A stretch of 18,695 bases of DNA from a virus (IMGVR_UViG_2609459839_000004), one strand, 5' to 3'; positions 10,233 to 10,530 are shown, numbered from the stretch's first letter. Made by a program: numbers and translations. Notes: generated by a model from the sequence alone, not told the origin.

Positions 10233-10391
10233 GCAGAATATTTTGCTGAAAAATAAGGCATGGCCACGCGGGCGGATAACATGAAATCCTGCGAACTGGC
10301 GAAACGTAAGTGAATAAAAGTAAAAACCCCGTTTGTTGGCACCAAGCGGGGTTTTGTGTTTCCTGACTCCGGAAAAGTCAAAGGAGAAAGT

Positions 10392-10529
10392 GTGTTTGAT
10401 TTTAGCAAACTGATTCGGGAGATTCGAGTGATGGCTGAAAAATTATCCACCTGGAAGTTCATTCTTATCTGGCTGGTGTTTGTGATTATGGCCTCCGGTT
10501 ATTTCATCGGTCAGATACGCTGGTGGTGA
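10392..10529 (+). CDS. Small single-TM ORF (45 codons, GTG start) between endolysin and Rz
   Basis: AAGGAG at 10381-10386 five nt before GTG 10392; encodes [20 protein letters not shown]; stop 1 nt before the Rz ATG. Below the ORF-track size cutoff. Confidence 0.3.
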
Positions 10530-10530
10530 A

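Follow-up and report, generated by a model that had tools for sequence, protein, structure and literature searches.

A modular cassette between the phage lysis genes R and Rz carries a conserved 45-codon gene and a predicted antisense RNA

The window analysed here is an 18,695-nucleotide stretch of viral DNA (IMGVR_UViG_2609459839_000004) whose setting, judged from ORF calls and Pfam matches, is a lambdoid late region like that of Shiga-toxin (Stx) phages. The endolysin gene R encodes a phage-21-type lysozyme with an N-terminal hydrophobic SAR-like segment and ends with a TAA stop at 10230-10232, and the i-spanin gene Rz, in which the o-spanin gene Rz1 is nested, begins at 10531. The 298 nt between R and Rz had been singled out in the earlier note as an insert between genes that normally abut. 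The equivalent K-12 genes overlap by 4 nt in both Qin (rrrQ/rzpQ) and DLP12 (rrrD/rzpD), and the spacer is therefore an insertion. The features of the region are listed below by position in the window.

9122-9340: phage-21-type holin (PF04971)
9345-9605: frameshifted ydfR/DUF1327 ORF
9699-10232, plus strand: endolysin R, the upstream border of the spacer (PF00959 Phage_lysozyme, E 2.1e-24)
10233-10530: R-Rz spacer, 298 nt
10233-10316, plus strand: 3' flank of R, outside the cassette, with a small hairpin GGATAACATGAAATCC; alignable to the Sakai Sp10 and Sp15 R-ant spacers
10314-10392, minus strand: predicted cis-antisense small RNA of ~72-80 nt, placed by promoter geometry and terminator position
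10317-10529, plus strand: whole mobile cassette of ~213 nt, conserved across more than 12 genera
10323-10355, both strands: G+C-rich stem-loop in the form of a bidirectional terminator, the predicted antisense 3' end, supported by folding and covariation
10359-10387, both strands: second, small hairpin whose 3' arm includes the Shine-Dalgarno sequence, supported by folds and covariation
10381-10386, plus strand: Shine-Dalgarno sequence AAGGAG, 5 nt before the GTG at 10392; (A/G)AGG(A/G)AG in homologues
10392-10529, plus strand: ORF with a GTG start and 45 codons (10392-10526, TGA at 10527-10529), matching PHROG 6632
10399-10427, minus strand: predicted sigma-70 promoter of the antisense RNA, from a synonymous-site footprint
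10531-10995, plus strand: Rz (i-spanin), the downstream border (PF03245 Phage_lysis, E 6.4e-51)
10751-10933: Rz1 (o-spanin), nested in Rz (PF06085, E 4.7e-18)

Homology to the R-ant spacers of Sakai Sp10 and Sp15 breaks at about 10316, which is the left edge of the cassette, and the spacer therefore consists of 84 nt of R flank followed by the ~213-nt cassette. The flank is common to phages that carry a different insert at the same site and is partly conserved in Salmonella. The cassette itself is composed of an A-tract, a hairpin, a T-tract, the hairpin containing the Shine-Dalgarno sequence, and the 45-codon ORF; its conservation begins a few nucleotides 5' of the first hairpin and stops at the ORF stop codon regardless of what flanks it. 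The conserved unit was found in E. coli, Salmonella, Citrobacter, Edwardsiella, Yersinia and Izhakiella, and also in Sodalis, Brenneria, Pantoea, Symbiopectobacterium, Azoarcus and a Pseudomonas phage. The G+C fraction of the cassette is 0.441 vs 0.537 for R and 0.525 for Rz, and the cassette is, like a moron, a discrete insertion of deviating composition between otherwise adjacent genes. A 361-nt region was recovered, at a coverage of at least 80%, from 871 of 5,426 complete E. coli genomes, and genomes giving any match did so at a median of two places. At the same coverage it was recovered from 39 phage records, among them that of H-19B, whose annotation names only R and Rz; the ORF lacks an annotation in most phage records. 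Copies of 99-100% occur for example in E. coli 55989 and MS6198, and Salmonella phage SPN3UB is a further carrier.

The cassette is a modular unit that turns up in several settings. In the endolysin-Rz gap a single nucleotide always separates the ORF from the Rz ATG, and at least five unrelated endolysin sequences lie upstream: a phage-21-type lysozyme, a 162-residue lysozyme beside an HP1-type holin, a 138-residue NNNPGNIR-type protein, a 183-residue protein (Edwardsiella) and a 149-residue lysozyme-like protein. The peptide is thus present in other lysis cassettes, where a search for it had been proposed, and it is present outside them as well. A second site is the gap between the baseplate spike and baseplate wedge genes, 3-15 nt before the wedge gene, in Salmonella phage SEN34, Pantoea, Yersinia and several IMG/VR contigs, and a third, in Brenneria, Symbiopectobacterium, Izhakiella and Sodalis, lies where tail-gene operons end. 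Stand-alone copies occur in accessory regions, where one adjoins PrlF/YhaV and others adjoin ParE, RelB/YafQ and HicB genes, these being distant members; another stand-alone copy sits in a cluster of small genes within the tail region of Pseudomonas phage YMC11/02/R656. The stop codon of the cassette lies 1-15 nt from the next gene. Across the homologues, no conserved plus-strand -10/-35 pair was found between the hairpin and the Shine-Dalgarno sequence, and in most copies the ORF depends on the transcription of the host operon.

The translation signals described earlier for the ORF (a consensus AAGGAG, a GTG start and 45 codons) were all confirmed, as was its end a single base short of the Rz ATG. 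The window peptide matches all 45 of the 45 profile positions of PHROG 6632 (E 6.4e-30), and the reading frame is kept in the homologous inserts. That family is of unknown function, and in some genomes PGAP labels the protein WP_000459345.1, 'hypothetical protein'; PHROG 6632 and WP_000459345.1 are the peptide's own family, and the entries describe neither a function, an RNA partner nor a cassette. No Pfam, NCBIfam or PADLOC family was found for the peptide, the best Pfam match being Epiglycanin_C (E 0.12, 13.1 bits, below the cut-off of 27), and homology to the holin, spanin and releasin families was not detected in Pfam or NCBIfam. A profile search of 1.84 billion representatives gave 41 clusters (50% identity clusters, E<=1e-3) with a core of 42-51 residues, xDxSK(L/I)IRE(L/I)RxMxE(K/R)LxxW(K/R)F, which is followed by the transmembrane (TM) segment and often by RWW at the end.

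The peptide has one hydrophobic stretch, as had been noted before, with its best 19-residue window at residues 24-42 (mean Kyte-Doolittle 2.13). An AlphaFold (AF2) model built with 25 family members places helices at residues 4-17 and 20-41 (mean pLDDT 79.5); the N-terminal helix is amphipathic and net-positive and the TM helix is C-terminal, a layout from which the topology would be N-in/C-out. The peptide falls within the size range of the small (<~60 residues) membrane peptides of type I toxins. The ORF closes with TGG TGG TGA, which gives Rz a Shine-Dalgarno-like GGTGGTGA, and coupling to Rz is for that reason plausible. The start codon is GTG or TTG, both weak, in enterobacterial members, and an alternative 57-codon reading from the GTG at 10356 is not conserved.

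The ORF is a conserved coding sequence under purifying selection. Pairwise dN/dS over codons 13-45 has a median of 0.135, with values below 1 in 158 of 158 evaluable pairs (dS was saturated in 207 of 378 pairs), and a constant length of 45 codons is maintained down to ~60% identity and from E. coli to Pseudomonas phages. Homologues come from isolated phages as well as from several proteobacterial orders, and we regard the peptide gene as very probably real. With the PHROG 6632 match, the 871 of 5,426 genomes and the conservation with covariation across genera, the features of the spacer are far beyond chance. A non-functional recombination scar, as had been suggested alongside a functional role, or a spurious ORF would suit an ORF missing from most phage annotations at a known mosaic junction, where ant is inserted in other Stx phages, but it is scarcely credible given the dN/dS, the constant length, the covariation of both helices and the range of homologues from Proteobacteria to phages.

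Upstream of the ORF, the stem-loop previously placed near 10325-10350 is present, with its limits refined to 10323-10355. Its arms AAAACCCCG...CGGGGTTTT form 13 pairs (6 G-C) around a loop of 7 and are followed by GTGTTTCC; with an A-run 5' and a T-run 3' it is terminator-like on the plus strand, and on the minus strand the same hairpin is followed by UUUUUACUUUUAUU. The stability of the stem is similar on the two strands (mean -21.6 vs -20.3 kcal/mol). The second hairpin (10359-10387) contains the Shine-Dalgarno sequence in its 3' arm, which is therefore sequestered in the mRNA, and on the minus strand it is stem-loop 1 of the predicted antisense RNA.

Both hairpins covary. In an alignment of 36 sequences guided by a covariance model, which was used since plain MAFFT misaligned the stems (RNAalifold recovered only 5 pairs), 92.2% of cells were paired and 15 of 21 pairs showed compensatory changes. 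The hairpin at 10359-10387 (helix 1) contributes 9 pairs, 7 of them with compensatory changes and 95.5% of cells paired, and the terminator (helix 2) contributes 12 pairs, 8 with compensatory changes. None of 500 shuffles reached any of the five measures, and sliding the partners by 1-3 columns lowered pairing to 35-60%. In 7 of 7 genera the fold of an 83-nt RNA from the minus strand consists of stem-loop 1, an A-rich linker (GGAAACACAAAA in the window, AGAAACAGAAA-like across the seven genera) and the terminator, with z scores from -2.4 to -5.7.

The strand on which these structures act was approached through the covariance model and through G-U pairs, a comparison of folding energies having been set aside as a strand test because the hairpins are about equally stable both ways. 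A model built from 24 homologues scores the minus strand of 10311-10394 at 78 bits and the plus strand at 38.8 bits, the latter arising through the palindromic hairpin; both helices are near-palindromes and thus also form in the mRNA. In helix 1, 25 G-U cells are compatible with the minus strand only vs 6 with the plus strand only, and in the terminator helix the counts are 13 vs 12, in an alignment fitted to the minus-strand model and among mutually related sequences. The bias in helix 1 is suggestive of a minus-strand RNA, and the balance in the terminator fits a bidirectional element. In the stand-alone copies L104, L105 and L212 no plus-strand gene ends at the hairpin, so that its sole evident role as a terminator there is for a minus-strand RNA. 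The hairpin is likely the bidirectional terminator of the predicted antisense RNA. Baseplate carriers of the SEN34 type are viable, and the plus-strand terminator must accordingly be inefficient there or bypassed by antitermination. Rfam 15 gave nothing in the spacer, either in a gathering scan of the whole window or in a permissive scan of 10150-10600; the best permissive match, a sub-threshold rimP-leader, was caused by the terminator and was rejected.

A promoter-shaped footprint is present at synonymous sites near the start of the ORF. Synonymous diversity was taken as the fraction of same-residue sequence pairs with different codons among 28 non-redundant 45-codon members. It is 0.00-0.07 at codons 3-6 (GAT TTT AGC AAA) and 0.00-0.04 at codons 10-12 (GAG TTG CGA), and it is 0.38-0.52 at codons 7-9 between the two blocks. 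The seven block codons average 0.015 vs ~0.440 at the other 32 informative codons; none of 100,000 random sets of seven codons was equally low, and when the 4+3 footprint was slid along the gene the real placement, alone among 18, reached 0.015. Ser5 is AGC and Arg12 is CGA in all 28 members, whereas Arg43 is spread over five codons.

On the minus strand the two blocks spell TCGCAA (TCGAAT in E. coli), 17 nt, and TGnTAnnnT, the spacing and sequence of an extended -10 promoter; in the window the predicted -35 TCGAAT lies at 10427->10422, followed by a 17-nt spacer and the extended -10 TGcTAAAAT at 10407->10399. The TGnTAnnnT motif was found in every one of the 79 distinct copies; in 76, a distance of 7 nt separates its 3' end from the start-codon complement. 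It is kept where the residues differ, as in Azoarcus, which has NFIK with TGATAAAAT, and in a Pseudomonas phage with TGCTAAAAT. In one genome that carries three tandem paralogous copies, two precede a different peptide and show TATACT at the same distance from the start codon. In distant homologues the N-terminus is conserved at the amino-acid level too, so that part of the nucleotide conservation reflects the protein. A plain sigma-70 promoter scan did not call the site at 10399-10427, because no more than 3 of the 6 positions of the -35 match; a good -35 is not a requirement of extended -10 promoters. Another promoter-like sequence on the minus strand, CTGACC-18-CATAAT (10514-10485), was dropped since it is not conserved in homologues, the underlying residues being variable, and a sense hairpin that pairs codons 3-5 with codons 15-18 in the E. 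coli minimum free energy fold was considered as a cause of the constraint and rejected, as it is not conserved in Salmonella.

An antisense RNA is somewhat more likely than not to be made. It would run from the complement of the start codon (~10391-10393) through the anti-Shine-Dalgarno sequence, stem-loop 1 and the A-rich linker to the terminator. The simplest model covering all features, among them the compactness of the unit, a terminator one small-RNA length away, the toxin-antitoxin (TA) neighbours and the multi-copy loci, is a mobile, antisense-locked small membrane peptide resembling a type I TA system, a reading to which we give about an even chance. In this model a self-contained cassette of ~213 nt has been inserted into many phage late operons, and its product would be a 45-residue tail-anchored inner-membrane peptide. 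Three brakes would act on translation: the weak GTG or TTG start, the hairpin that buries the Shine-Dalgarno sequence, and a predicted constitutive antisense RNA of ~75 nt. That RNA would be transcribed from the extended -10 promoter that opposes the ORF within codons 3-12, would cover the start codon and the Shine-Dalgarno sequence, and would stop at the two-strand terminator hairpin just upstream.

In a lysogen, the antisense RNA would pair with leaky late transcript and either block the ribosome-binding region or trigger its decay. Lambdoid late transcription in lytic growth is antiterminated by Q and reads through terminators; the late transcript would then pass the hairpin and exceed the antisense RNA, and the peptide would be produced along with Rz and Rz1. 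The TGGTGGTGA end of the ORF would provide Rz with its Shine-Dalgarno-like sequence, and would thereby let the cassette occupy a place between translationally coupled genes without shutting off the second of them. Promoter firing, the RNA ends, translational repression and the action of the peptide on the membrane are predictions of the model. That the peptide is a toxin is a tentative proposal which we hold to be somewhat improbable, and the most likely guess at its activity, holin-like or depolarising toxicity, is offered with similar diffidence. A bolder form of the model, put forward as a speculation that may well fail, is that these cassettes constitute a widespread phage-borne type I TA-like family with no sense promoter, an antisense -10 in codons 3-12, and a lock that holds in the lysogen and is released by late transcription. 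On that speculative view the cassette would parasitise late operons, into which it inserts exactly ahead of a downstream gene, and hand the next gene a Shine-Dalgarno sequence through its RWW-stop codons, and the peptide may have a role in lysis timing, abortive infection or prophage addiction.

The predicted arrangement has precedents. In symE/SymR, IS10 RNA-IN/RNA-OUT and P22 ant/sar, a cis-antisense RNA of ~70-77 nt starts from a promoter inside the 5' end of the target ORF, covers the Shine-Dalgarno sequence and start codon, and has its 3' end at an intrinsic terminator immediately upstream. The cassette has the same geometry, with an RNA that is predicted only. These systems differ in having no small membrane peptide, no sequence similarity to the cassette and no late-operon location: SymE is a 113-residue soluble protein under SOS control, unlike the 45-residue membrane peptide here, and the IS10 and P22 targets are a transposase and an antirepressor.

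With hok/sok, ldr/rdl, ibs/sib, tisB/istR and zorO/orzO, the cassette shares a single-TM peptide of fewer than 60 residues, a leader that occludes the Shine-Dalgarno sequence and an antisense partner (predicted here), and like the classical type I toxins it is multi-copy, carried on mobile elements and found near other TA genes; the covariance-model search returned one locus with three copies of the leader. There is no sequence relation to the classical toxins in the Pfam, NCBIfam and PADLOC searches. Several points weigh against the antisense-locked model. The cassette contains no sense promoter for the peptide, which is atypical for type I toxins, and the polarity of the peptide, with the charged helix N-terminal and the TM helix C-terminal, is opposite to that of most of them; to these are added the 3 of 6 matches in the -35, the lack of an Rfam 15 match, the near-equal stability of the hairpins on the two strands, the amino-acid conservation of the N-terminus and the viability of phages with the cassette inside baseplate operons. 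The Shine-Dalgarno-like end of the ORF is a further departure from type I TA systems. The families treated by Fozo et al. 2010 (PMC2887945) do not include that of the peptide.

The earlier note had proposed a small membrane peptide coupled to the spanin gene as a lysis regulator. The conserved gene and a plausible coupling to Rz stand; a role specific to lysis is put in doubt by the copies at baseplate genes and in TA islands. In its fuller form, the proposal is that a late membrane protein tunes lysis through Rz, the SAR endolysin or a pinholin, with the hairpin serving as a terminator or insulator after R and the conservation of the early codons reflecting the protein or translation signals. 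Small membrane lysis accessories exist, such as releasin of phage Mu. In E. coli, Salmonella and Citrobacter the ORF always stops one nucleotide short of a homologous Rz (ATGAACCG...), whatever the endolysin; this position agrees with such a role, as do the single-TM N-in topology the peptide would have, which is that of an i-spanin anchor, and the co-expression with lysis genes that is to be expected. An unrelated 48-residue TM peptide, ECs_1966, also lies directly before Rz in the ant cassette. Association with lysis genes is not consistent, however: other copies lie between baseplate genes, follow tail genes, or stand by themselves in accessory or TA islands where no lysis gene adjoins, and this spread argues against a function tied to lysis. 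Constraint on a protein does not explain invariant third positions (AGC and CGA in 28 of 28, with Arg43 in five codons), and the promoter-like spacing of the conserved blocks is left without an account. We consider a lysis accessory unlikely.

An ordinary moron or insulator, with no antisense RNA, is also improbable. The plus-strand terminator would here halt read-through that is not antiterminated in lysogens, and the ORF would be a passenger of unknown benefit, for example in superinfection exclusion. Membrane-protein morons are known in late operons, HK97 gp15 being one, and the cassette resembles HK97 gp15 and lambda bor/lom in being an extra gene between late genes, of lower G+C content (0.441 vs 0.53 in the neighbours) and patchy distribution, present or absent between genes that otherwise adjoin; its hairpin is terminator-like on the plus strand. 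Morons, however, are promoter-gene-terminator units that the prophage expresses, whereas the cassette runs terminator-leader-gene, the reverse of the classical layout. No promoter was found upstream of the ORF and no terminator downstream, and the only recognisable promoter is on the opposite strand. A passenger gene also leaves the synonymous footprint, the hairpin sequestering the Shine-Dalgarno sequence and the conserved non-ATG start unexplained, and the stand-alone copies have no upstream plus-strand gene in need of termination.

The cassette is carried by about one in six complete E. coli genomes, often in several copies, and by Shiga-toxin phages such as H-19B, and no record assigns it a function. 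If the antisense RNA exists, the late and lysis regions of Stx phages, in which toxin release is determined, would acquire a further prophage small RNA and a small membrane protein, and the cassette would be a clear case of a coding-embedded promoter recognisable from its synonymous footprint alone. If the peptide is a membrane toxin, type I TA-like systems would gain a new peptide architecture and a lifestyle that depends on the host operon. For annotation, the case calls for caution, as what appears in a lysis cassette as an intergenic spacer plus terminator may be a two-strand gene module. In the open-access literature, searched by accession, PHROG identifier, peptide and topic, no description of the family, the RNA or the cassette was found.

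The ant cassette of Sakai Sp10 and Sp15 occupies the same site, with the same breakpoint after R (~10316) and an end just before Rz. It encodes a P22_AR_N antirepressor and, as its last gene, the 48-residue TM peptide ECs_1966/ECs_5741, and it is much larger than the present cassette and unrelated in sequence; the covariance model found no hairpin-leader module in it (loci L102 and L211). Sp15 and Sp10 were considered as a source of Hfq-CRAC transcripts for the cassette and rejected, since they carry the ant cassette in its place. Among the 63 orphan small RNA candidates from Hfq-CRAC of E. coli O157 Sakai, in which the two prophages examined carry ant at the site, none lies between R and Rz. 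The known prophage small RNAs AgvB, AsxR, StxS, Pas, STnc100 and EcOnc match the cassette neither in sequence or structure nor in position. AgvB and AsxR lie between Q and the holin gene, away from the R-Rz site (Tree et al. 2014, PMC4104026), as do the Pas RNAs (bioRxiv 10.64898/2026.05.13.724894); StxS lies upstream of the holin gene (PMC7547250), and EcOnc10, 11 and 12 lie downstream of Rz. The sole Rfam match in the window to a known prophage small RNA is STnc100, at 7818-8007.

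The 84 nt that follow the stop codon of the endolysin gene R (10233-10316), which include a small hairpin, GGATAACATGAAATCC, are kept in E. coli Stx phages irrespective of the cassette downstream and are partially conserved in Salmonella. Two prophages of strain Sakai carry another insert at the R-Rz site, with the same breakpoint after R as for the cassette in the window:

L102 4556-5271 (Sakai Sp10): P22_AR_N antirepressor gene and 48-residue peptide
L211 2749-3464 (Sakai Sp15): P22_AR_N antirepressor gene and 48-residue peptide

The 48-residue product (ECs_1966/ECs_5741) is a single-TM peptide unrelated to the cassette peptide and ends 7 nt before Rz; it is a second, independent instance of a small membrane peptide immediately 5' of Rz.

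The hairpin-leader module and the PHROG 6632 peptide also occur in other arrangements:

L104 2415-2499, 3119-3204 and 4645-4730 (GCA_900156195.1): copies of the hairpin-leader module
L212 2674-2790 (Pseudomonas phage YMC11/02/R656): small peptide following the PHROG 6632 family member

The three modules of GCA_900156195.1 lie in one genome, alternating with ParE and RelB/YafQ type II TA genes, and two of them stand before a different peptide (...MNSTDAGIVARRLANAALILAAG...AIRWW). Directly 3' of the family member, phage YMC11/02/R656 encodes a 38-residue peptide resembling this different peptide. Together these loci hint at a second family of small peptides, linked to the first. Rare variants occur in two IMG/VR contigs: in L138 (1380-1500) unrelated sequence replaces the upstream hairpin region while the ORF and internal promoter motif are retained, and L168 (1424-1500) has a TTG start codon and an SD hairpin of divergent sequence.

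Upstream of R, the window contains the following:

7494-7566: tRNA gene 1
7577-7650: tRNA gene 2
7667-7740: tRNA gene 3
7818-8007: full-length STnc100 sRNA (132 bits)
9345-9605: ydfR/DUF1327 ORF, 86 residues only

STnc100 sits 3' of the three tRNA genes (whole segment 7494-8007); a 2026 preprint (bioRxiv 10.64898/2026.05.13.724894) links it to the prophage PasD sRNAs. Relative to O157:H16 ydfR, the ydfR/DUF1327 ORF is frame-shifted by a 16-nt deletion near 9510 and is therefore probably a pseudogene.

On the minus strand 3' of Rz, positions ~11190-11240 are homologous to the EcOnc11 site of Sakai Sp10, an Hfq-CRAC peak with sister sites EcOnc10 and EcOnc12 (Tree et al., 2014; PMC4104026). Given this homology, the segment may encode an uncharacterised Hfq-bound antisense-strand RNA. 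Three further features lie 3' of the lysis genes, the first two resembling K-12 ydfO/ynfO:

11303-11728, minus strand: DUF1398 ORF
11771-12004, minus strand: DUF3950 ORF
12327-12875, after the DUF3950 ORF: Nu1-type small terminase
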